From the NCBI GenBank assembly GCA_964623835.1, contig CAZUVN010000002.1:1-45090 (forward strand): a stretch of 45,090 nucleotides of DNA, in the 5' to 3' direction. The notes beneath the pieces were generated by a model. That model searched no databases, was not told the DNA's origin, and saw only the letters and a list, made by a program, of their open reading frames with translations. Positions 4,041 to 42,328 of this stretch are shown here, one piece after another. The position numbers were made by a program, and so were the translations under genes. Source of the DNA: an uncultured Candidatus Peribacteria bacterium. GTDB taxonomy: Bacteria > Patescibacteriota > Gracilibacteria > Peribacterales > Peribacteraceae. Each line of letters starts with the position of its first letter. Positions within the stretch are counted from its first letter, which is position 1.

Positions 4041-4154
4041 GCGCACTCAAAAAACGGCTACAATGCCCGCACTGTGGCGGTTCCTTCTCTGCTTCGCAGA
4101 ATCAGGACAGGCTCCGCTCAGTTGGTTCCATTTCTCATCATCGGATATATACGT

Positions 4155-4232
4155 GGCGGTCGTAGCTCAGTTGGTTAGAGCATCAGGTTGTGGTCCTGAG
4201 GGTCGTGGGTTCGAGCCCCATCGACCGCCCCA
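4155..4232 (+). tRNA. tRNA-His (anticodon GTG) with genome-encoded G-1 and 3' CCA
   Basis: Hand-folded cloverleaf. Acceptor stem G(-1)+GCGGTCG/CGACCGC, discriminator C, then CCA. D arm GCTC-AGTTGGTTA-GAGC. Anticodon arm TCAGG-TTGTGGT-CCTGA. Variable loop GGGTC. T arm GTGGG-TTCGAGC-CCCAT. Confidence 0.95.
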
Positions 4233-4233
4233 T

Positions 4234-5856
4234 TTATTCCCCGGTTCTCAACGTCTCAAACAAAACTCTTTCGCCTTCTTTTCGCAGTCTCACCGCCATC
4301 GCCGTCGACGTCGCAACGTCTTCAAATTGATCGAAGATAAAGTTCCCGACACCACGGAAGATCGGTTTACCTTTATAGATCTCCATATCACTAATCACGT
4401 GCGTGTGAGCCGCAACAACAACATCCGCCCCGGCATCGATGAAGCTGCGTAGGTACTGATTGTATGCATCTGATCCCAGTGCGACATATTCTTTGCCTGC
4501 GTGCGTCAGCACGACTGTTAATTGATCGGAAGGATTGTTTTTGAGTTGATCGATGACATGACGATACGATGCGCCGATATCGAGTGCGGTAGTATCGGCA
4601 ACGGGATTCATTAATGCCGTCAGAGAAATCAGTCGAACGTTATCTGCTTCAATTAATGAATCTCCTACCCACGTTTCTCCTGCCTCATCGATGATACGTT
4701 TGGTTTCAGCTAATCCTTCAGCATATTGATCGAACGTGTGATTGTTTAACACGGCCCAATGTGTGGCAAGATTCAGCATTCCTTTCCAGAGATGCTCTGC
4801 GTTACAGAAATCGAACATCACACGATCCTTAGCGCATACAGAGAGAACCGGCCCTTCCAGATTTACCAAACGTAATCCCCTCCCATTCCAGAATTGCTGC
4901 ATCGCTGGTTTCAGTTTGGGCGTGGTGATGCGGCGTGTCATTGTCACATCACCGCCAACTGCAAGATCGTCGCCGGTTAAATCATCGTTGCGATACCAGG
5001 CCATTGAAAAGTGGCTGGTCGTCTCTTTCACCGTTTCATCATTCAAAATGCGGGCAGAGTTTGAATGGATCAGCACCGACGGATTGTAGAAGTCATTGTT
5101 CGCCGCGATGCTTGCGAAGGACCAGAGACAGACCGGGCAATCGCTCTGTTCAGGGTTCTTCAGTGCGACAATACCTTCAAGATCTTTTGCAAACATCGCT
5201 TCTGCAGTGATCTCATCCATCTCATCCGCTTTCTTCAGCGACAGGTAATGGGAGAAATCACTGCTGACAATAATGATGCCGGTTTGGTCGAAAATTCCCT
5301 GTAACAATTTCAGCAACTCCTCTTTTCGCTCAAACCATCCGTCGGAAATCACAATAGGAATGATTTTTGTGTCCGGCAGTTCATGTTTGATGAACGGCAA
5401 CACAGCTGCAATTCCATGTTCGCCGTTGAACAACGGCCCATCGAGGGTTACAAGCGTCGATCGTGCAATTGCATCGATCAAGGCATCATCGGTTTCCACG
5501 TCCCCGAGCATTGTCGTGAATGTTCCGGGTGTTGTGCAGACAACAGTTGGACACTTGTTGAAATGATCCGGAGAAACGAGCAGCACGCTCTGCGGCTGTT
5601 TTTTAGAGAGCATATGAATTCCTAATGCAATCCCTTCGGACGCCGTCAGATGATGCGGCACGATGATGCCGGGAATATCGCGATCGGGAATATCGACCGA
5701 TTGTGTTTTATAGATTCCCTCCATCACCTGTTGTAACGCTTCGGGAGGCAACGGATCAGTGATGATCGGCCTGCTTTCCGTTTTCATCAAAAAGGGAGCC
5801 GCCACGAGGGCGGCTCCAAACATTGTAGTAAGAATGACAATCGCGTTTCTGTTCAT
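4234..5856 (-). CDS. Fusion protein: N-terminal Memo-like (AmmeMemoRadiSam system protein B family) domain plus C-terminal CapA/PGA_cap metallophosphoesterase-like domain
   Basis: Memo-like motifs: IIVPHH, LLVSPDHF, GEHGIAAVLPFIK, VSSDFSHY. CapA-like motifs: GGDVTMTRR, VNLEGPV, LTHAGKEY, DAGADVVVAAHTHV, GVGNFIFDQ. Start taken at M15 (MNRNAIVILTTMFGAALVAAPFLM, a TM/signal segment). Its ATG (5856-5854) overlaps the upstream TGA (5855-5853) as ATGA. Confidence 0.85.
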   Translation of the reverse strand: MNRNAIVILTTMFGAALVAAPFLMKTESRPIITDPLPPEALQQVMEGIYKTQSVDIPDRDIPGIIVPHHLTASEGIALGIHMLSKKQPQSVLLVSPDHFNKCPTVVCTTPGTFTTMLGDVETDDALIDAIARSTLVTLDGPLFNGEHGIAAVLPFIKHELPDTKIIPIVISDGWFERKEELLKLLQGIFDQTGIIIVSSDFSHYLSLKKADEMDEITAEAMFAKDLEGIVALKNPEQSDCPVCLWSFASIAANNDFYNPSVLIHSNSARILNDETVKETTSHFSMAWYRNDDLTGDDLAVGGDVTMTRRITTPKLKPAMQQFWNGRGLRLVNLEGPVLSVCAKDRVMFDFCNAEHLWKGMLNLATHWAVLNNHTFDQYAEGLAETKRIIDEAGETWVGDSLIEADNVRLISLTALMNPVADTTALDIGASYRHVIDQLKNNPSDQLTVVLTHAGKEYVALGSDAYNQYLRSFIDAGADVVVAAHTHVISDMEIYKGKPIFRGVGNFIFDQFEDVATSTAMAVRLRKEGERVLFETLRTGE

Positions 5857-9765: not shown

Positions 9766-11115
9766 ATGTCTCAGCCCCTTTTCCGCACTCCCCGTGGTAC
9801 CAATGACCTCCTTCCGGAGGATCACCAATATCACACGTATATAAAGAAAGCTGTGCGTCATCGCGCACGTCAGGCAGGTTTCAAACGCATCGACCCGCCG
9901 GTGTACGAAAATCGTGCGATTTTTGAGCGCGGCATCGGTGAACATACGGATATTGTCGAAAAAGAACTCTTCCTTGTTACATCGAAACAGAAGAGTGATG
10001 ACGCGGCAGAGCTTGCCCTTCGTCCCGAATTTACTGCCGGTATTTGCCGTGCATATGTGGAGCACGGCATGCAGCAATTACCTCAACCGGTGCAACTCTA
10101 TTCGATCGGTCAGTGCTTCCGCCACGACCGTCCGCAGAAAGGACGCTACCGCCAATTTCACCAGTTCGACTTTGAAATGATCGGCTTGAAAGATGCGTCG
10201 CTGGATGCGCAGCTGATTCAGGTGATTGTCAAAATACTCGACGATCTGCGCATTATGGACAGACTGACGCTGCAGATTAACAACGTTGGTAATGCGGAAA
10301 ACCGCAAAGAGTTTTGTCAGGCATTGAAAGATTTCTTCATTGGCAAAGAGCGAAACCTTCCCGAGCTCGATCAGAAGCGACTTCAATACAACCCTCTTCG
10401 CCTGCTCGATTCCAAAGAGGAAGACACGCAGATTCTATTGAAAAACGCACCCAAGTTGGAACAGTTCGTCGATGACGAATCGCGCGCGTACCACGAGACC
10501 GTTCTGGAGTACCTCGAAGCGCTGGATATCAAGTACGTTAAAAACGAAGGACTTGTCCGAGGCCTCGATTACTACAATCAAACCGTGTTCGAGTTGTGGG
10601 ACAGTTCGACCGGCGCACAGAACGCCGTTGGGGGAGGTGGTCGCTATGACAGCCTTATTGAGCTCTTTGGCGGTCATTCAACACCGGGACTGGGCGCTGC
10701 ATGCGGCATGGAACGCATTATCTGGCACATGAAAGAAGCCGGCATTCAAGCCCCGAACAAAGACCAGGTTGATGTGTTTGTTGCGCAGCTGGGACCGGAG
10801 GCAAAGAAAACCTGCTTGAAGCTGATTACGGACCTGCGTGAAATGGGTGTTCACACCGTGGGAGCCCTTGGCGAAGCAAGCCTGAAGAGCCAAATGCGTT
10901 TGGCCGACAAGTTTGAAGCGCGATACACACTGCTACTGGGCAAGATGGAGGTAAAGGACGGCACCATTATTCTGCGCGATATGAAAGCCGGTAAGCAGAA
11001 GCAGATTCCGTTCAAGGACACACTGAAGACAATCAAGAAGTTGCTTGGCGAGAAGAACTTGGATACGTATTCGCTGACCGATCACATGGGCAACATCATT
11101 GATCAGGGTGAATAA
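9766..11115 (+). CDS. hisS: Histidine--tRNA ligase
   Basis: 449 aa with class II aaRS HisRS motifs: RGTNDLLP, LRPEFTAGICRAY, QCFRHDRPQKGRYRQFHQFDFE, GGGGRYDSL. Confidence 0.95.
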   Translation: MSQPLFRTPRGTNDLLPEDHQYHTYIKKAVRHRARQAGFKRIDPPVYENRAIFERGIGEHTDIVEKELFLVTSKQKSDDAAELALRPEFTAGICRAYVEHGMQQLPQPVQLYSIGQCFRHDRPQKGRYRQFHQFDFEMIGLKDASLDAQLIQVIVKILDDLRIMDRLTLQINNVGNAENRKEFCQALKDFFIGKERNLPELDQKRLQYNPLRLLDSKEEDTQILLKNAPKLEQFVDDESRAYHETVLEYLEALDIKYVKNEGLVRGLDYYNQTVFELWDSSTGAQNAVGGGGRYDSLIELFGGHSTPGLGAACGMERIIWHMKEAGIQAPNKDQVDVFVAQLGPEAKKTCLKLITDLREMGVHTVGALGEASLKSQMRLADKFEARYTLLLGKMEVKDGTIILRDMKAGKQKQIPFKDTLKTIKKLLGEKNLDTYSLTDHMGNIIDQGE

Positions 11116-15101: not shown

Positions 15102-15803
15102 CTACAACCGCAGGATCGCCGCAACAACGGCACTTTCCGGTAACTTACCGGCTTCTACCAGTGCCACGCGGCCGCGGTGAGCAACGGCATGTGCCATTGC
15201 ATCCTGCACCTTCGTATCCTGTTTTTCGGCGCCATCCGTCACCAGCAACAGATCGATCTTGCCAAGTTCTCCTGCCGCAATGATCGCATCAATGTCATTG
15301 CTGGTACGACCAGTCCCTAACAGATTGCCGTATTCTTCAATCAATGTTTCGGCCTGCTTCATTTGATGCGCCTTTACGATTGCATCTGCTTTTTCTTTCA
15401 GCTCTTCCATCTGCATCTGCTGCGCGCTTCCTTTGATGTAGTCCTCCAACAGCATGCCGGACTGATCGAACTTCTTGAACATGCCGTACTCTTCGGCAAC
15501 ACCGGCAAAGACCAACGGCAACCGAGCTGTGTGCACAACCGGGTACACACTCTTGGCCACTTTGTGGAGATACTCATCTTCCTCCTGCTCTGCCACGTCT
15601 TTTGCTCCACCCTGACCGTGGAACATTCCTGCTCCACCCCCCGTCGAGTGTGACTGAACCGATTGTTCGTGTCGCTCCATGCCCGCCCACGCTTCACTCA
15701 TACTTGCAGGCATACCCTCCACTGTAAGCGGCTTGATAGTGCCATCGCCTACATGGAAAAGTTGTGCATGATTCTTACTGACGGCGAGAATGAAGTACTG
15801 CAT
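15102..15803 (-). CDS. Hypothetical protein, tentatively eRF1/Pelota-like (baeRF / host-attachment superfamily)
   Basis: 233 aa. The layout is an N-terminal beta-rich segment, a Gly-rich HSTGGGAGMFHGQGGAKD segment, and a C-terminal DLLLVTDG...GRVALVE...VAAILRL. It resembles the bacterial aeRF1-like families as I remember them. The functional call is weak. Confidence 0.6.
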   Translation of the reverse strand: MQYFILAVSKNHAQLFHVGDGTIKPLTVEGMPASMSEAWAGMERHEQSVQSHSTGGGAGMFHGQGGAKDVAEQEEDEYLHKVAKSVYPVVHTARLPLVFAGVAEEYGMFKKFDQSGMLLEDYIKGSAQQMQMEELKEKADAIVKAHQMKQAETLIEEYGNLLGTGRTSNDIDAIIAAGELGKIDLLLVTDGAEKQDTKVQDAMAHAVAHRGRVALVEAGKLPESAVVAAILRL

Positions 15804-15860
15804 AAATTGAGGAGCAAGGAAGTAGGATGTAGAGACTAGGAGAACAGGATTGTACGACTG

Positions 15861-21038: not shown

Positions 21039-21143
21039 AACCTCCACTCTAGAGATATCTATCGATAAATTCCGCTTTAGTGATTTAAAGCGGTGAAGCG
21101 TTTTCGACTTGACTCCTGAAAGCTAAAAGCTAACTCCTAGTTC

Positions 21144-21830
21144 CTACATCTTCGCCGTCCTCAACCCCCACAACTCTTTGAACATCCGGATAATCACCTT
21201 CACCGATCCGCCCGTCGGCGTTCCCTTTGTCCGCGGGTAGTGCGGTACATCGACGGTATACCAAGGAATCCCCTTCCGTTTCAGACGCAAAAACATTTCG
21301 GTATTGAAGAGCTTTTCCACGCCGTGTGTCGGGCGGATCTCTTTCCAGACATCGCGGCGGAATAATTTAAGACCGCAATTCACGTCGCGAACCCAGAGCC
21401 CAAGCACGATGTAGTTCATGCCACCAAGAATCTTTCCGAACATGTTGCGAATGAGCGGATCAGCTCTGTGTGCTCGTCGCCCTGTTACAAACGCAAAGCG
21501 ATCGATATGCGGCAACAGCAATGACAGATCCGACGCGTGGAATTGTCCGTCGCTGTCCATGAACGCAATCAGGTCCGTGGTCGCAGCATCGCATCCCGAA
21601 CGAACCGCTACACCATATCCTCCATTCTTCTGATGGGTAACGATTTTTAAATTATCATGTTTTTTGGCAAGGTCTTTCAAGATCTGCGGCGATCTATCTT
21701 TCGATCCGTCGTCAACGACAATAATCGTGCCGTCGATCGACGCATTGCTCATCCACGACGCTACGTCGCGAATGGCAGCTTCGATATTTTCTTCTTCGTT
21801 ATAACAGGGAAGGATGACGGAGAGTTTCAT
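21144..21830 (-). CDS. Family 2 glycosyltransferase, Dpm1-like polyprenyl-phosphate sugar synthase
   Basis: MKLSVILPCYNEEENI and IIVVDDGSKDRS, a DSDGQ DxD region, and 228 aa without a TM tail. Confidence 0.88.
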   Translation of the reverse strand: MKLSVILPCYNEEENIEAAIRDVASWMSNASIDGTIIVVDDGSKDRSPQILKDLAKKHDNLKIVTHQKNGGYGVAVRSGCDAATTDLIAFMDSDGQFHASDLSLLLPHIDRFAFVTGRRAHRADPLIRNMFGKILGGMNYIVLGLWVRDVNCGLKLFRRDVWKEIRPTHGVEKLFNTEMFLRLKRKGIPWYTVDVPHYPRTKGTPTGGSVKVIIRMFKELWGLRTAKM

Positions 21831-28588: not shown

Positions 28589-28873
28589 ATGTTCACCCGC
28601 ATCCTTTCTTTCATTCGTGCGTACCCCAAACTCGTCAACGACCCGGCTGTTCCAGCAAAGGCGAAATATCTCCCCTTGCTCGCACTCGTGTATGTGATTG
28701 TCCCGATTGATCTCATTCCGGATTTCTTTCTGCTCCTTGGTCAAATCGACGATATCGGCATCACTCTCATTCTTCTCACCATGGCAATGCGAATCTATGA
28801 TCAGACACCCGCCCAACGGGAAAAGAAGAGATACGGGGACGTAATTGACGTAGAAGCCCTTAAAAAGGGCTAG
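28589..28873 (+). CDS. DUF1232 (YkvA-family) membrane protein
   Basis: Motif YVIVPIDLIPDFFLLLGQIDDIGI (the PxDxIPDxxPxxGxxDD signature). TATGAT lies 6 nt upstream of the ATG. Confidence 0.8.
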   Translation: MFTRILSFIRAYPKLVNDPAVPAKAKYLPLLALVYVIVPIDLIPDFFLLLGQIDDIGITLILLTMAMRIYDQTPAQREKKRYGDVIDVEALKKG

Positions 28874-28889
28874 GATCGGTAAAATTTTC

Positions 28890-28918
28890 TTGCAAAGCCA
28901 GATAGACATCGGTATAAA
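28890..28918 (+). promoter_or_regulatory. Promoter about 220 nt upstream of rpsB
   Basis: TTGCAA (28890-28895), 17 nt, TATAAA (28913-28918). No ORF lies between it and rpsB. Confidence 0.55.
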
Positions 28919-29115
28919 GCACGCACCACCGAATGCCGATCGCTGCGGTCCTGATCCCGAAGGGATCACTCTGAGCTAGTCGAAGAGTGCCTTCCCCAAC
29001 GGAATATCCTCCGCATTAGGCGAAAAGACGCATTCGGGCAGCCCCCAAGGATTTGATCACTGCCTTCTCTGTTGCACCCACTAAGGGTGTCGATCGCGTC
29101 GATCAACTCTGCTTT

Positions 29116-29138
29116 TACCTCCTAGTTCCTACCTCCTA
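29116..29138 (+). promoter_or_regulatory. Tandem TACCTCCTA elements immediately upstream of the rpsB start
   Basis: TACCTCCTA at 29116-29124 and at 29130-29138. The second copy ends 5 nt before ATG 29144. Confidence 0.4.
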
Positions 29139-29143
29139 TCGTT

Positions 29144-29893
29144 ATGCCTATCCCGTCTGAAGCCGAACTGCTGGAACATGCCTGCCACTTCGGCCACCCC
29201 CAGGCTAAATGGAACCCAAAAATCGCGCCGTACCTCTATGGCACGCGCAAGGGTATTCATATTTTCGATCTTGAGCAGACACGCAAGGGTCTGATTGAGG
29301 TTGTTGATGCACTAAAAGCACTGCAGTCCGCCGGCAAGACCGTCTTGTTCGTCTCGACCAAGCAGCAGAGCATCCCGTTGATTGAAGATCTTGGTCACAA
29401 GTTGAATCAGCCGATTGTCACCAAGAAATGGATTCCGGGACTCCTGACAAACTGGCCGACGATCAAGCGCCGCTTGCAGTACTATCTCGATCTCCGCCGC
29501 AGTTTCCAGACCGGTGAAGTGGAAAAGTACACGAAGAAGGAGCAAACAGAATTGCGCAAAGAGCTGACAAAGCTTGATGCCGCACTCTCCGGTGTTGCCG
29601 CCATGCACGGTCTGCCAGACGCACTCTTCGTCGTTGACGCGGTGCGCGACCACGTCGCGGTGCTCGAAGCGAAGAAGCTTGGCATCCCGGTCTACGGCAT
29701 CTGCGATTCCAACGCCGACCCCGATGAACTGACAGCCTGCATTCCTGCAAACGACGATGCCGTCCGTTCCATCCAAATCTTGCTCGACACGATCCTGCAC
29801 GAACTGCAGGCTGTGCGCAGCAAGAAACAGGAACAAGTCGTAAACAAAGAAGAAGAGCCCGAAGAGCGCACAGTGATCGGCGGCTCATACTAA
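29144..29893 (+). CDS. rpsB: 30S ribosomal protein S2
   Basis: Motifs LLEHACHFGHPQAKWNPKIAPYLYGTRKGIHIFDL, VLFVSTKQQ and LPDALFVVD...EAKKLGIPVYGICDSNADPD. Confidence 0.97.
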   Translation: MPIPSEAELLEHACHFGHPQAKWNPKIAPYLYGTRKGIHIFDLEQTRKGLIEVVDALKALQSAGKTVLFVSTKQQSIPLIEDLGHKLNQPIVTKKWIPGLLTNWPTIKRRLQYYLDLRRSFQTGEVEKYTKKEQTELRKELTKLDAALSGVAAMHGLPDALFVVDAVRDHVAVLEAKKLGIPVYGICDSNADPDELTACIPANDDAVRSIQILLDTILHELQAVRSKKQEQVVNKEEEPEERTVIGGSY

Positions 29894-29927
29894 GATATTC
29901 TATCCTCGACTTCTCCATCCTAGCTCC

Positions 29928-29936
29928 TACCTCCTA
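29928..29936 (+). promoter_or_regulatory. Third TACCTCCTA element, 6 nt upstream of the tsf start
   Basis: TCCTAGCTCCTACCTCCTA (29918-29936) matches the rpsB-proximal TCCTAGTTCCTACCTCCTA at 18 of 19 positions. Confidence 0.4.
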
Positions 29937-29942
29937 GATATC

Positions 29943-36864: not shown

Positions 36865-36888
36865 GCCTGAATCACCTGTTGTTCAGGC
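36865..36888 (+). terminator. Weak hairpin after the VirD4-like gene, overlapping the convergent gene's stop codon
   Basis: GCCTGAA-(10 nt)-TTCAGGC followed by TCCTTTC. The stem is only 7 bp. Confidence 0.35.
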
Positions 36889-38328
36889 TCCTTTCAGATA
36901 ATGCTTAGCATATTGATTCTTAATAGGATGCTGATCTGACATTTGCAATATCATTTGCATCTTGTCCTTATGCCCATATTTCCTATCTTGAATTCGCTGT
37001 GATTTTCTTCGAATTGAATTAAGTGTTGTCTCAGTACCGGTTGCTAAAACCGTGCACTCAAGATTTGCTCGTAAAAATTTTGAAATCATCTCGGGACTAT
37101 TTACATCTTCAGTTGAACCAAATTCCATAAAGACACGAGCTAATGTTAGACACTTTGAAATTGAAGTCGTCCAGAGGAATGGCTGATTTTCCATTAACGA
37201 AATTATGTCTAGTGACGATTGTGAAACTACTTTCAGCCTCTTAAACAGGAGAATACGTCGATCAATATTCTCAAAAGTAAGATTAAATATTCCCGGAATA
37301 TCTTCTAGAAGGCCCACGGGACTGCAAAATCCGCGGCATTTTAGTCCATTAATTTTTTCATCAAGATACACAAAAGTATAAGAGGCAATCGCAGGATGTA
37401 CTATAAACATAGACACCGGATCTTTAAAGCCGCGATCTTTTAATCCCTGTATCTTTTTATCAATATTCTCAATAGATAATCCAAAGAATGTCGGCGATTT
37501 TGTTATGAGTTTAACTGGGTCTATAAATCCTCTGCTTGTTAGTTGCTCAATTTTTTCATGAATACTCTCAAGGCTATAGCAAACAAATGTAGGGTGCTGC
37601 GAAAGAAGTTTTATAGGATCTTTAAAGCCACATTTTCTCAATCCATCAATCTTACTCCTTAAAGCGTCAACATCATTCCCGAGAATCGAAGGTTGCTTTA
37701 CTACTAATTTGAGAGGATCAGCAAACCCAATTTCTTTTAATAGAGCCATTTTCTCATAAATAGTTTCGGACGAATAATTGAGTAATGAGGGATGTCTTTT
37801 AATAATATGCGCAGCATTTTGAATGCCAATTTCTCTTAGAGCTGTAATCTTCTTATCGATTGTTTCTAATGATAAAGAAAGGATTGATGGAGCCCTAGCG
37901 ATCAGTTGAATGGGATCCGCAAAGCCACGTTTTTTAAGCCCCTCAATAGTCTCGCTAATATTTTGTAATGATAAACCAAGAACAATTGGATGCATTTCGA
38001 TAATTTTGTGCGGATCCTTAAAACCGCAACTTTGTAAAAATACGACTTTTTGAACCAAATTTTCAGTTGAATATCCGAGAACTGCAGAGAATGATTCGAT
38101 TAATAAATATGGATTTTGAAATCCTAATTCTTGAAGAGTACTGATTGTTTTTTCCAATGATCTTACACGTGTTAGGTTTGGATCAGCTTTTTGCAAAGCA
38201 TCTGCAAATTTTTCAGAGAAACCCCTCTGAATCAAGAATGTGCGTCTAGCTGCAATAATATTTTCAGCGGTTTCGCCGGGAGGGAAAACTGTACCTAAAT
38301 GCCGCTGATATAGAGACCCGTTTTCCAT
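36883..38328 (-). CDS. mTERF-like helical-repeat protein (ten 33-aa repeats plus a ~117-aa basic C-terminal region), encoded in an AT-rich island
   Basis: Start taken at MENGSLYQ (ATG 38328), one nt after the sortase TGA (38332-38330). Repeat consensus [RCI]GF.DP..L....P.IL..S.E.I..KI..L+.. Two sampled 60-nt lines are 33% GC, against 50-58% in the flanking genes. No signal peptide. Confidence 0.8.
   Translation of the reverse strand: MENGSLYQRHLGTVFPPGETAENIIAARRTFLIQRGFSEKFADALQKADPNLTRVRSLEKTISTLQELGFQNPYLLIESFSAVLGYSTENLVQKVVFLQSCGFKDPHKIIEMHPIVLGLSLQNISETIEGLKKRGFADPIQLIARAPSILSLSLETIDKKITALREIGIQNAAHIIKRHPSLLNYSSETIYEKMALLKEIGFADPLKLVVKQPSILGNDVDALRSKIDGLRKCGFKDPIKLLSQHPTFVCYSLESIHEKIEQLTSRGFIDPVKLITKSPTFFGLSIENIDKKIQGLKDRGFKDPVSMFIVHPAIASYTFVYLDEKINGLKCRGFCSPVGLLEDIPGIFNLTFENIDRRILLFKRLKVVSQSSLDIISLMENQPFLWTTSISKCLTLARVFMEFGSTEDVNSPEMISKFLRANLECTVLATGTETTLNSIRRKSQRIQDRKYGHKDKMQMILQMSDQHPIKNQYAKHYLKGA
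37237..38226 (-). repeat. Coding tandem array: ten in-register 33-codon units (990 nt)
   Basis: ORF-track residues 47-376. Example units: RGFADPIQLIARAPSILSLSLETIDKKITALRE, CGFKDPIKLLSQHPTFVCYSLESIHEKIEQLTS and RGFIDPVKLITKSPTFFGLSIENIDKKIQGLKD. Confidence 0.85.
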
Positions 38329-38329
38329 A

Positions 38330-39493
38330 TCATCGCGCCGCCACCTCGCTAACCGGCGCCGCATGAACTAGGTAACGCTGATCGATCGAATCTGGCGGCC
38401 AGCAGGTGTAGAGAATCAACTCTTCACCGCGACCTCCTTGATACGCCGAGAAGTCTTTGTCATCGACTGCGCGTTTGTGCGTGACCTGATACGTGTGAAC
38501 TTTGCCTCCGTATGTGACATAAATTTTATCGCCGATGCTGAGCTTGTTGATCTGGCGGAAGATCTTCGTGTAGTTGGATACATCCCATCCGTAGCTGGAG
38601 CTGTGACCGTAGACGAGAATGGTCCCACCGGCACCGGGATAGCTGAACAAGTGACCCACTCCGTACTTCAGCGGTGCAAGCAATCCATCAGACGTTGTCG
38701 GGTTGGACGGATGTGTGATTGTCAGATCTTTGATTCCGAGCGATGGAAGAGTGATAGCAAAGGCTTTGTTGGAAGCTTGTGGTGCGGTTGTTGTTGAAGT
38801 TGTCGTTGTTGTCGGACGCGCGGGGGTCGGCGTTGCCTGCGCGACGTAGGTTGGGCGTGGCTGTGCTGGACGATTAACTGCAGGTGCCCGGGCTGGCGCT
38901 GGCGCCTGTGCAACAACCGGACGAATGACAACAGGGGCGGGCTTAGGTTGATGGCTGATGGCAATCTGTTCCGGCTTCTCGACACCCGTTGAAGACATCA
39001 TCGCAAACAGGCTCTGTTTGCTGACCGGCATTCCAAGGCGAATGGGCGATGGCAATTGCACTCCTCCTTTTACGGCGGCATTTAGGGCACCGCTGAACCA
39101 ATCTCCGTCCGTGGTATTCAGATCACTCAGTGTATCGGGGCGCTTGCGAGCATTAGTGCGGGCAATCAGCACAATCGCCTCTTCTTCGGCCAACACATCA
39201 CCAGGGCGGAACCGTCTGTCGGCATTTCCCGTAATAATTCCCGCCTCAAAAGCCGTCTCAATATACGGTGCGTACCACTGGTCGTAGTCGAGATCGTCGA
39301 ACAGCGGCATCGGCGGTGGATTCTTGATGTAGTGCTGCAAACGCTGCTTTAAGACGGAATCCGATTCAACAATCATCGCGACGGCTCCGGCGCGGGAAAT
39401 CGGCTCATTGGACGGTAATTCTGCGGCGAATGCCTGGGTCATAAACCCGACCAGCAGAACAAGCACGGTGAGGAGGATGAACCGCTTTTCCAT
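38330..39493 (-). CDS. Sortase-family transpeptidase with an N-terminal SLH-like module and a Pro/Thr-rich linker
   Basis: Signal/TM segment MEKRFILLTVLVLLVGFMTQAFA. SLH-like FDDLDYDQWYAPYIETAFEAGIITGNADRRFRPGDVLAEEEAIVLIAR. Sortase catalytic triad context ILVYGHSS, LILYTCWP and QRYLVHA. Confidence 0.85.
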   Translation of the reverse strand: MEKRFILLTVLVLLVGFMTQAFAAELPSNEPISRAGAVAMIVESDSVLKQRLQHYIKNPPPMPLFDDLDYDQWYAPYIETAFEAGIITGNADRRFRPGDVLAEEEAIVLIARTNARKRPDTLSDLNTTDGDWFSGALNAAVKGGVQLPSPIRLGMPVSKQSLFAMMSSTGVEKPEQIAISHQPKPAPVVIRPVVAQAPAPARAPAVNRPAQPRPTYVAQATPTPARPTTTTTSTTTAPQASNKAFAITLPSLGIKDLTITHPSNPTTSDGLLAPLKYGVGHLFSYPGAGGTILVYGHSSSYGWDVSNYTKIFRQINKLSIGDKIYVTYGGKVHTYQVTHKRAVDDKDFSAYQGGRGEELILYTCWPPDSIDQRYLVHAAPVSEVAAR

Positions 39494-41757: not shown

Positions 41758-41833
41758 AAAACTAGACAGTAAATACCAATACTGATGTATACTATCTGAC
41801 TGGTATTGTTTTATCACCTTCTACTCTCCATCT

Positions 41834-42328
41834 ATGCGCCTATCTTCTTCCAGACCCGGTGAAGCAAATGTTCCCGCTGTGCTGCTGTCGACCGCCGTGT
41901 TGATTTTGGCAATCGCTGCCGCGTTCTATGTCATGGTCGTTCTGCCCTTTCAGAATGACGACGACGCATCCGGCAGTTCCTCGTCTTCATCCGTCTCATC
42001 CATGATGTCCTCTTCGCAGAATGTTGCTCCTGCGAGTGCAGCGCCATCCAGCGCCTTTAATCAGGCCGCTTATGACGGATGCATCAACGCAGCAACGGAA
42101 GCGCACACTCAGCGCTGGGCTGCGGCCTGTCTACAGCTGCGCGAGACGCAGGAAAGCGCCTATTTGGCCTGCATCCAACAGGAAAAGGGCGAAACCTATT
42201 GTCAGGCACAGTTTGGCGGCTATGAGGAAATAGACCCCAACTGCGTACTATCTCCCGCACGAACCGCCGCACTCAATGCGCAGTTCACGCTTGGCAAAGA
42301 GGTATGTGATCGAGAGCACGGACAATAA
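41834..42328 (+). CDS. Hypothetical membrane-anchored protein with a Ser-rich linker and a Cys-containing ectodomain
   Basis: TM segment VPAVLLSTAVLILAIAAAFYVMVVL, then a poly-Ser segment, then a ~100-aa domain with 6 Cys. Confidence 0.65.
   Translation: MRLSSSRPGEANVPAVLLSTAVLILAIAAAFYVMVVLPFQNDDDASGSSSSSSVSSMMSSSQNVAPASAAPSSAFNQAAYDGCINAATEAHTQRWAAACLQLRETQESAYLACIQQEKGETYCQAQFGGYEEIDPNCVLSPARTAALNAQFTLGKEVCDREHGQ

Follow-up and report, generated by a model that had tools for sequence, protein, structure and literature searches.

We propose that a nine-nucleotide element, TACCTCCTA, which stands directly before rpsB and tsf in a stretch of DNA from an uncultured Candidatus Peribacteria bacterium, is the sub-lineage version of a translation initiation region that the Peribacteria as a whole may use independently of the Shine-Dalgarno (SD) sequence. 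The stretch analysed, hereafter the window, comprises positions 1 to 45,090 of contig CAZUVN010000002.1 (assembly GCA_964623835.1; 45,090 nt). We hold this reading with moderate confidence. The initiation region would consist of a G-depleted, C/U-rich and unstructured tract directly upstream of the start codon, with a C-box (CCCC or CCYCC, often after UU) whose slot is fixed at about 8-15 nt ahead of the AUG. Such a tract would recruit or position the 30S subunit without an SD/anti-SD helix. As far as sequence comparison can tell, what is conserved before rpsB and tsf is composition and position, not the exact sequence, and the 9-mer is meaningless in itself beyond the CCUCC that it supplies to the box slot.

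The element occurs at 29116-29124, 29130-29138 and 29928-29936, always on the plus strand, and no further copy is present on either strand of the window. The original prediction had put the distance from the nearest copy to the ATG at 5 nt for rpsB and 6 nt for tsf; the sequence and the Pfam assignments of the two genes confirm this, and the start codons of both are backed by N-terminal alignment with 80 homologues. The extended elements at 29120-29138 and 29918-29936 likewise match at 18 of 19 positions, as had been stated. The argument that three copies are unlikely by chance stands in part. Only 0.05 copies are expected in dinucleotide-preserving shuffles, and three or more were seen in none of 100 shuffles. 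However, the copies are not independent, because they arise from local heptad duplication and from sharing between the two leaders: the rpsB site consists of three tandem heptads, TCCTAGT-TCCTACC-TCCTATC (29120-29140), and the tsf site of another three, TCCTAGC-TCCTACC-TCCTAGA (29918-29938). Within these sites CCTCC lies at -12 to -8 before rpsB and at -13 to -9 before tsf, inside the box slot of the clade. Both tracts are 72-80% pyrimidine with at most 2 G per 25 nt, and the tsf leader holds no ATG, GTG or TTG. A structured 5' untranslated region (UTR) of about 220 nt precedes rpsB, and tsf follows as an internal cistron; both carry tract and box in the conserved position. The tsf leader also contains an inverted repeat, GATATTCTA/TAGATATC (29894-29902 and 29934-29941, plus strand), which turns the C/U tract into a loop of 32 nt and leaves the AUG at the base of the stem; in the relative L001 the tsf tract is closed by a different pair, TCTAG/CTAGA.

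The window was compared with 80 related loci (L001-L080) obtained from a scan of one-genome-per-species contigs. All are titled Peribacteria or Peregrinibacteria, their S2 identity to the window is 66-96%, and the 120 best named S2 homologues all belong to Candidatus Peribacteria/Peregrinibacteria. The leader comparison used 79 rpsB and 79 tsf leaders with 918 other genes as the control set for the box, gene-start statistics were drawn from 1017 crude gene calls in the window and the 80 loci, and a k-mer position test covered 1173 non-redundant upstream regions of other genes. Among the 80 relatives, L001 and L002 (S2 identity 96% and 93%) are the only ones with the exact 9-mer before these genes. 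They also share with the window an identical 23-mer ahead of tsf, CATCCTAGCTCCTACCTCCTAGA; the rpsB leader of L001 has CAUCC in the box slot and five heptads against the window's three. Beyond about 85% S2 identity the leaders can no longer be aligned. The expectation that the element would recur in relatives therefore failed for the exact element and held for its composition and position.

These two properties are pronounced. The mean number of G in positions -25 to -1 is 1.8 for rpsB and 0.9 for tsf, and 75% of rpsB and 95% of tsf leaders have at most 2 G in their last 25 nt, compared with 3% of random 25-mers. In the position matrix a T-run at -18 to -14 is followed by a C-run at -13 to -8, with C at 68-84% over -12 to -9 in tsf. 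CCCC or CCYCC is present between -15 and -7 in 61% of tsf leaders, 42% of rpsB leaders and 4% of the control genes, and a control slot at -35 to -27 has it in 4-5%. The predicted probability of being unpaired over -20 to +3 is 0.72 for rpsB and 0.81 for tsf compared with 0.48 for other genes. A pyrimidine tract upstream of the start codon that is predicted to be single-stranded, as is characteristic of S1-dependent enhancers, is thus present in both leaders.

SD motifs are almost unused in the clade. No purine or G peak appears upstream of the 1017 called gene starts, where G is depleted from -15 to -1, and GGAGG, GGAG and AAGGA are flat or depleted upstream of the starts in the window and its relatives. 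In published tables, Peribacteria have about 7% SD genes and the 16S tail CACUUCCUUA, and the S4 table of the same source gives the tail GAACACTTCCTTA in three Peribacteria assemblies and in nothing else (PMC10783764). One identical 48-nt 16S end is carried by all 64 metagenomic 16S contigs that we retrieved (L081-L144), the retrieval pattern itself having required the published tail. Shared proteins gave no informative link between these contigs and the rpsB loci. To judge from its class, the window organism probably has CUUCC in its own tail. The motif had been noted to lie at the place of an SD sequence in the same sense as the canonical anti-SD, and so unable to act as an SD itself; all three points are upheld. 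The mean duplex energy of 99 S2/Ts leaders is -0.19 kcal/mol with CACCUCCUUA and -0.22 kcal/mol with CACUUCCUUA, that is, about -0.2 kcal/mol with either. The rpsB and tsf leaders thus lack SD complementarity, and the C-run at -13 to -8 occupies an SD-like spacing (roughly 5-13 nt upstream). In a few genes a true SD that pairs with the altered tail at its CCUUA-3' end seems to survive, as TAAGG peaks at -14/-13 (7 cases against 0.9 expected at the gene starts of L001-L144); the analysis can therefore detect the few genuine SD sequences. Upstream of the starts, the clade's most prominent signal is an extended -10 box (TGnTATACT/TATAAT) at -20 to -8. Across all loci, many start codons lie only about 7-15 nt after the end of an extended -10 box (TGnTATAAT/TATACT), as upstream of 18995 (-), 32597 (-), 34382 (+) and 1765 (+) in the window. 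The closeness of these boxes to the starts suggests that most promoter-proximal genes are leaderless or have very short leaders.

The C-box is also found in front of unrelated genes. In the 1173 upstream regions, TTCCC starts at -16 to -14 in 24 genes (5.2 expected, p 2e-9) and TTCCCC at -15/-14 in 10 genes (0.9 expected, p 6e-8). The other genes that carry the box belong to at least 12 families, with 9 further genes beside rRNA loci, and include SIMPL/DUF541, transposase, aminoacyl-tRNA synthetase, peptidase and hypothetical protein genes. Many genes with a TTCCC box have a -10 box at -33 to -26, so their leader is only about 20 nt long and almost wholly tract. Together with the positioned G-free tract and C-box of the 80 Peribacteria, this peak of UUCCC(C) elsewhere gives comparative support to one of the three explanations first offered for the 9-mer, a non-canonical initiation signal.

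The likeliest route for such a signal would be a pyrimidine-binding ribosomal component, such as bS1, that meets an open landing pad. A G-free leader holds no AUG, GUG or UUG and no G-C or G-U self-pairs, and so would keep the way to the first AUG open and free of other start codons. The sharp positioning of the C-box would imply a specific contact on the 30S platform, for which bS1 is the obvious candidate. bS1 has affinity for polypyrimidines. In the Candidate Phyla Radiation (CPR), the group that includes Peribacteria, most members are reported to have a bS1 with 3-4 domains (PMC9297842).

Several points weigh against this reading. The function is deduced from conserved composition and position, and the choice of bS1 as the reader of the box from its polypyrimidine affinity and its presence in the CPR. 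The box is a minority signal, found in 3-7% of other genes, operon-internal ones included, and its much higher frequency before rpsB and tsf (42-61%) leaves a general ribosome-binding role unproven. A de novo expectation-maximisation motif search in genes without a -10 box returned a diffuse T[CT][CT][CT]C with no sharp position. In addition, gene starts other than those of rpsB and tsf come from a crude open reading frame (ORF) caller, and the sample consists only of the neighbourhoods of rpsB and of rRNA operons.

It is conceivable, though we consider it unlikely, that the tract is instead an operon-specific operator, in which S2, or S1 together with S2, binds the tract or C-box in both leaders and autoregulates the S2/EF-Ts pair. 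The box is 10-15 times commoner before rpsB and tsf than before other genes, the two leaders evolve in concert (strings of at least 12 nt are common to both in 6 of 77 genomes), and a third translation-related gene of the window, encoding a baeRF-family protein, shares CTCCTAGT with them. In E. coli, S2 reportedly autoregulates rpsB-tsf through the rpsB 5' UTR (Aseev and colleagues, 2008). S1 is attached to the 30S subunit through S2, according to PMC3296737. On the other hand, the same UUCCC(C) box stands at the same distance before the unrelated SIMPL, transposase, aminoacyl-tRNA synthetase, peptidase and hypothetical genes, and a protein operator would not usually show such a lack of sequence conservation. 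A far better conserved and separate candidate for an S2 operator lies upstream, in the structured RNA described below.

The form of operator that had been suggested, an rRNA mimic, fares worse. The clade's 16S tail is CUUCC, in the published tables as in the 64 16S ends selected for it, so CCUCC is no mimic of it. The 9-mer lacks conservation beyond about 93% S2 identity, the rpsB slot of the closest relative reads CAUCC, and boxes of this kind also stand before SIMPL-family, transposase and hypothetical genes. Neither a conserved sequence or structure nor a likeness to the organism's own rRNA site, as judged on the 16S tail, is found for the TACCTCCTA tract. The remaining suggestion, that the tract is the partner of an upstream GGAGG-like sequester, gains no support: a conserved purine segment complementary to the tract is lacking, and the tract is predicted unpaired. 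When the full 5' UTR and the tsf leader were folded in search of an upstream purine sequester, no robust partner emerged and the energy z-scores were about 0, and this candidate was rejected.

The 5' UTR of rpsB does contain a conserved structured RNA (Table 1). From 5' to 3' it comprises the stem P1, GAUCGC...GCGAAAAGAC, GCG/CGC, a variable hairpin, AUCCUCCGCA and, at the 3' end, the invariant CCAAGGAU. RNAalifold, applied to 29 short variants, gave 14 pairs with compensatory changes in 11 of them. In a search of 1.29 Mb with a covariance model, 76 of 81 sources yielded a single copy per locus; every copy lies immediately before rpsB, and no others turned up. In the resulting 76-sequence alignment, 96.3% of the cells are paired, compared with 78.7% in shuffles and 23-52% in slid controls; there are 192 compensatory cells, compared with 46 in shuffles, and compensatory changes affect 12 of the 14 pairs. 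This RNA is therefore a covarying, conserved structure that occurs only upstream of a ribosomal protein gene, as is expected of a ribosomal protein leader. CCAAGGAU lies 14-254 nt from the rpsB ATG across the loci, which makes the RNA a part of the rpsB 5' UTR. The invariant AUCCUCCGCA and CCAAGGAU could form a pseudoknot. AAGGAU could pair with either of two UCCU segments; each of these pairings is 90-95% compatible but invariant. No match to this RNA was found in Rfam 15, nothing relevant appeared at E<=10 in 28850-29160, and no Rfam family covers the C/U tract. The leading candidate for an S2-responsive leader is the structured RNA and not the 9-mer. As in E. coli, the operon begins with a long, conserved structured rpsB 5' UTR. 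Unlike in E. coli, the structure has no sequence or Rfam similarity to the E. coli leader, the TACCTCCTA tract is not part of that structure, and tsf has a box of its own instead of relying only on coupling.

A promoter-like arrangement precedes the structured RNA in the window (Table 1), and the same arrangement is found upstream of it in relatives. It would place the transcription start near 28925 and give a 5' UTR of about 220 nt. A promoter/terminator scanner called nothing in the window's rpsB and tsf leaders; it misses TATAAA because the last base of this -10 hexamer is A. In relatives, a GC hairpin, sometimes followed by a U-run, often takes the place of the two small hairpins that separate the structured RNA from the C/U tract in the window.

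A relocated anti-SD seems rather improbable to us. On this reading a purine-rich 3' extension of the 16S rRNA, …CUUCCUUA-CCAGGGAA, would form base pairs with the box (UUCCC or CCYCC, 9-15 nt ahead of the AUG), UUCCC lying opposite GGGAA; the composition would be inverted relative to that of the SD system, the pairing would be used most strongly by the rpsB and tsf leaders, and in the precursor the extension would be masked by a C/U-rich strand resembling the mRNA box. In its favour is an invariant CCAGGGAA that directly follows the 16S end …CTTCCTTA in L081-L144, at 98-100% across 40 distinct spacers. In these 40 trailers, conservation stays at 98-100% through CCTTACCAGGGAA and then falls to 72-30%, and the 5' strand of the trailer hairpin, CCAGGGA, is invariant while its C/U-rich cis partner varies (UCUCUGG, UCCCUG, UCUUUGG). 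For the S2/Ts leaders the binding energy with CCAGGGAA is -5.4 kcal/mol, which ranks this octamer 3 of 150 against its own permutations. The TTCCC peak is sharp and at an SD-like distance, and 3 of 7 TTCCCT cases continue with G. Mature 16S tails have been found to lie within a genomically conserved boundary in 13 species (PMC6288834), a further point in favour of the pairing. Retention of these 9 nt in the mature 16S rRNA is only hypothetical, however, and the conserved trailer could simply be a processing hairpin or fold back on CUUCCUU. Outside rpsB and tsf, the octamer has no advantage over its permutations (rank 53 of 150). UUCCC is mostly followed by C where pairing would call for U, no more than 3-4 pairs would be made by the window's UACCUCC, and the register of the sub-motifs is only weakly consistent. 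Complementarity to internal 16S segments was uninformative, as GGGGAA and GGAGG sites are scattered. If such pairing were true, Peribacteria would have replaced the SD system by one of inverted composition.

The repeated structure of the tracts raises the question of their origin. Exact tandem runs of at least 9 nt, with lags of 5-15, are present in 18% of rpsB and 13% of tsf leaders, compared with at most 0.3% in shuffles and 2% of other genes, and periods 7 and 14 account for 15 of 24 tandem-repeat cases. The repeat units in relatives' leaders include CTACTCA, CCACTGA, TTCTCAA, CAATTTAA and CCCTAA. In 6 of 77 genomes, from at least four lineages, the rpsB leader has an identical string of at least 12 nt in common with the tsf leader; for cross-genome pairs the figure is 0.3%. 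These data suggest repeated copying between the rpsB and tsf leaders, and the occurrence of one 9-mer three times in the window is explained by slippage, mostly of 7-mer units, together with leader-to-leader copying. The identical strings common to a genome's own rpsB and tsf leaders measure 12-20 nt in the window and in L001, L002, L004, L006 and L008; that of L004 is an entire GC hairpin.

Tandem repeats, their differing copy number between close relatives and the lack of conservation of the exact sequence would also fit neutral low-complexity DNA, in which slippage makes pyrimidine microsatellites and the three 9-mers are a functionless by-product. We give this little credence: strand-specific G-depletion and a C-run are maintained at a fixed distance from two starts over S2 identities of 66-96%, the control slot at -35 to -27 is without the box, and repeats are rare upstream of other genes (2%). 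A transcription-level role is just as doubtful. The tract could be a Rho-utilisation (rut)-like site, or an attenuator together with the preceding hairpins, that controls read-through into rpsB and from rpsB into tsf. rut sites have a high C-to-G ratio, are unstructured and extend over about 70-80 nt. The C:G ratio and lack of structure of the tract resemble them, and the GC hairpin that comes just before the tract in many relatives, at times with a U-run, would suit an attenuator. However, the tracts measure only 25-40 nt, what is conserved is how far they stand from the AUG, the terminator scan is empty in the window's two leaders, and leaders of 20 nt that immediately follow a promoter can carry the box as well. 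The reverse complement of the 9-mer, TAGGAGGTA, is a perfect canonical SD, and a 151-aa antisense ORF (29463-29918, minus strand) starts 10 nt downstream of one copy, but a role as SD for antisense ORFs was rejected as practically negligible, since in the four closest relatives that ORF is 24, 61, 31 and 13 aa long, GGAGG is not in use in the clade and the motif lacks conservation.

An SD-independent initiation region, the explanation that we favour, shares features with several known systems. Like SD/anti-SD pairing, it involves a short box about 8-15 nt upstream of the start that is strongest on translation-machinery genes. Unlike the SD, the Peribacteria box is pyrimidine (CCCC, CCUCC) and cannot pair with CACCUCCUUA or CACUUCCUUA, and G is excluded from the leader. 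The omega leader of tobacco mosaic virus (TMV) is G-free and built of short direct repeats. Pyrimidine-rich or AU-rich unstructured leaders are also reported to act as S1-dependent, SD-independent enhancers (Gallie and Kado, 1989; Tzareva and colleagues, 1994; Mutsuda and Sugiura, 2006). The Peribacteria tracts are likewise G-free or G-poor, predicted to be single-stranded, often composed of tandem repeats and without an SD; the leader of L061, with four copies of CAATTTAA, is omega-like. In contrast to those enhancers and omega, the tracts are C-rich and not A/U-rich, they carry a positioned C-box, and they are native to a whole class that lacks CCUCC; a role of S1 is hypothetical here. In Bacteroidia, according to PMC6847099, initiation without an SD uses Kozak-like A-rich positions and low structure. 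Both clades have thus lost the SD clade-wide and tune initiation by low structure and specific upstream positions, but in Bacteroidia CCUCC is kept though hidden and A is preferred at -3, -6 and -12 to -15, whereas in Peribacteria the core is mutated to CUUCC and C/U is used. The leaderless initiation of the GeneMarkS-2 'group C' genomes, as outlined in PMC6028130, is comparable in that the dominant upstream signal is a -10 box close to the start codon. Peribacteria rpsB and tsf differ from it as leadered genes or internal cistrons that carry a C/U tract instead. SD-independent initiation regions are therefore already known, and our comparison points to a C-rich, box-positioned version that is undescribed.

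How start codons are found in lineages without SD/anti-SD pairing is an open question, and in the CPR it is essentially unstudied; our literature search found no paper linking Peribacteria to a ribosome-binding-site motif or an rpsB leader. The G-free C/U tract with its positioned C-box is a concrete, testable element in a class with a mutated anti-SD core, and two candidate readers can be named for it, bS1 or the conserved G-rich 3' extension of the 16S rRNA. These results are of practical use for gene-start prediction in CPR metagenomes. The covariation-supported rpsB leader RNA is new and a candidate S2 sensor.

Table 1. Positions of the features of the window that are discussed in the text.
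Feature	Position	Strand	Basis or remark
Short G-poor C/U leader of the baeRF-family gene 15102-15803	15804..15842	-	CTCCTAGT and TCCTA common to rpsB/tsf leaders
Putative rpsB promoter: TTGCAA 28890-28895, 17-nt spacer, TATAAA 28913-28918	28890..28918	+	read from sequence
Conserved structured RNA, rpsB 5' UTR	28932..29062	+	covariance model match 73 bits, E 8e-15
Two small hairpins, CACCC-ACUAA-GGGUG and GAUCG-CGU-CGAUC, between structured RNA and C/U tract	29075..29104	+	
rpsB proximal leader, G-poor C/U tract with two TACCTCCTA copies and three TCCTANN heptads	29112..29143	+	matches clade C-run -13..-8
rpsB, ribosomal protein S2, 249 aa	29144..29893	+	Pfam PF00318 Ribosomal_S2, 2.6e-69
rpsB-tsf intergenic region = tsf leader; three TCCTANN heptads, TACCTCCTA at 29928-29936	29894..29942	+	
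tsf, elongation factor Ts, 257 aa	29943..30716	+	Pfam PF00889 EF_TS, 2.7e-50
G-free C/U leader (0 G in 25 nt) of hypothetical gene 41834-42328	41809..41833	+	

G-poor leaders occur elsewhere in the window (Table 1). The related copies that had been noticed in the leader of the gene at 15803 are real: this leader contains CTCCTAGT and two TCCTA with 1 G in 25 nt, and a TACAAT -10-like box lies at 15854-15849 upstream of the gene (minus strand). Its product is a baeRF (bacterial archaeo-eukaryotic release-factor-like) protein, which makes it the third translation-related gene with this lineage's motif. A similar G-poor leader also precedes the SLH-sortase gene at 39493. A 14-mer, CTCCTAGTTCCTAC (21134-21147, plus strand), is identical to part of the rpsB leader; it overlaps the stop codon and 3' end of a minus-strand GT2 glycosyltransferase gene (21144-21830), and no plus-strand gene follows it.

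Two further features of the window are recorded here. A tRNA-His (GTG) at 4156-4232 (plus strand) was the sole match in an Rfam scan of the window at the gathering threshold. It lies inside a 129-aa ORF (4063-4452, plus strand), which is therefore spurious, and the HisRS gene is found about 5.5 kb away, at 9766-11115. The mTERF family is known mainly from organelles, and a 493-aa protein encoded at 36883-38364 (minus strand) has an mTERF domain (Pfam 1.1e-29).

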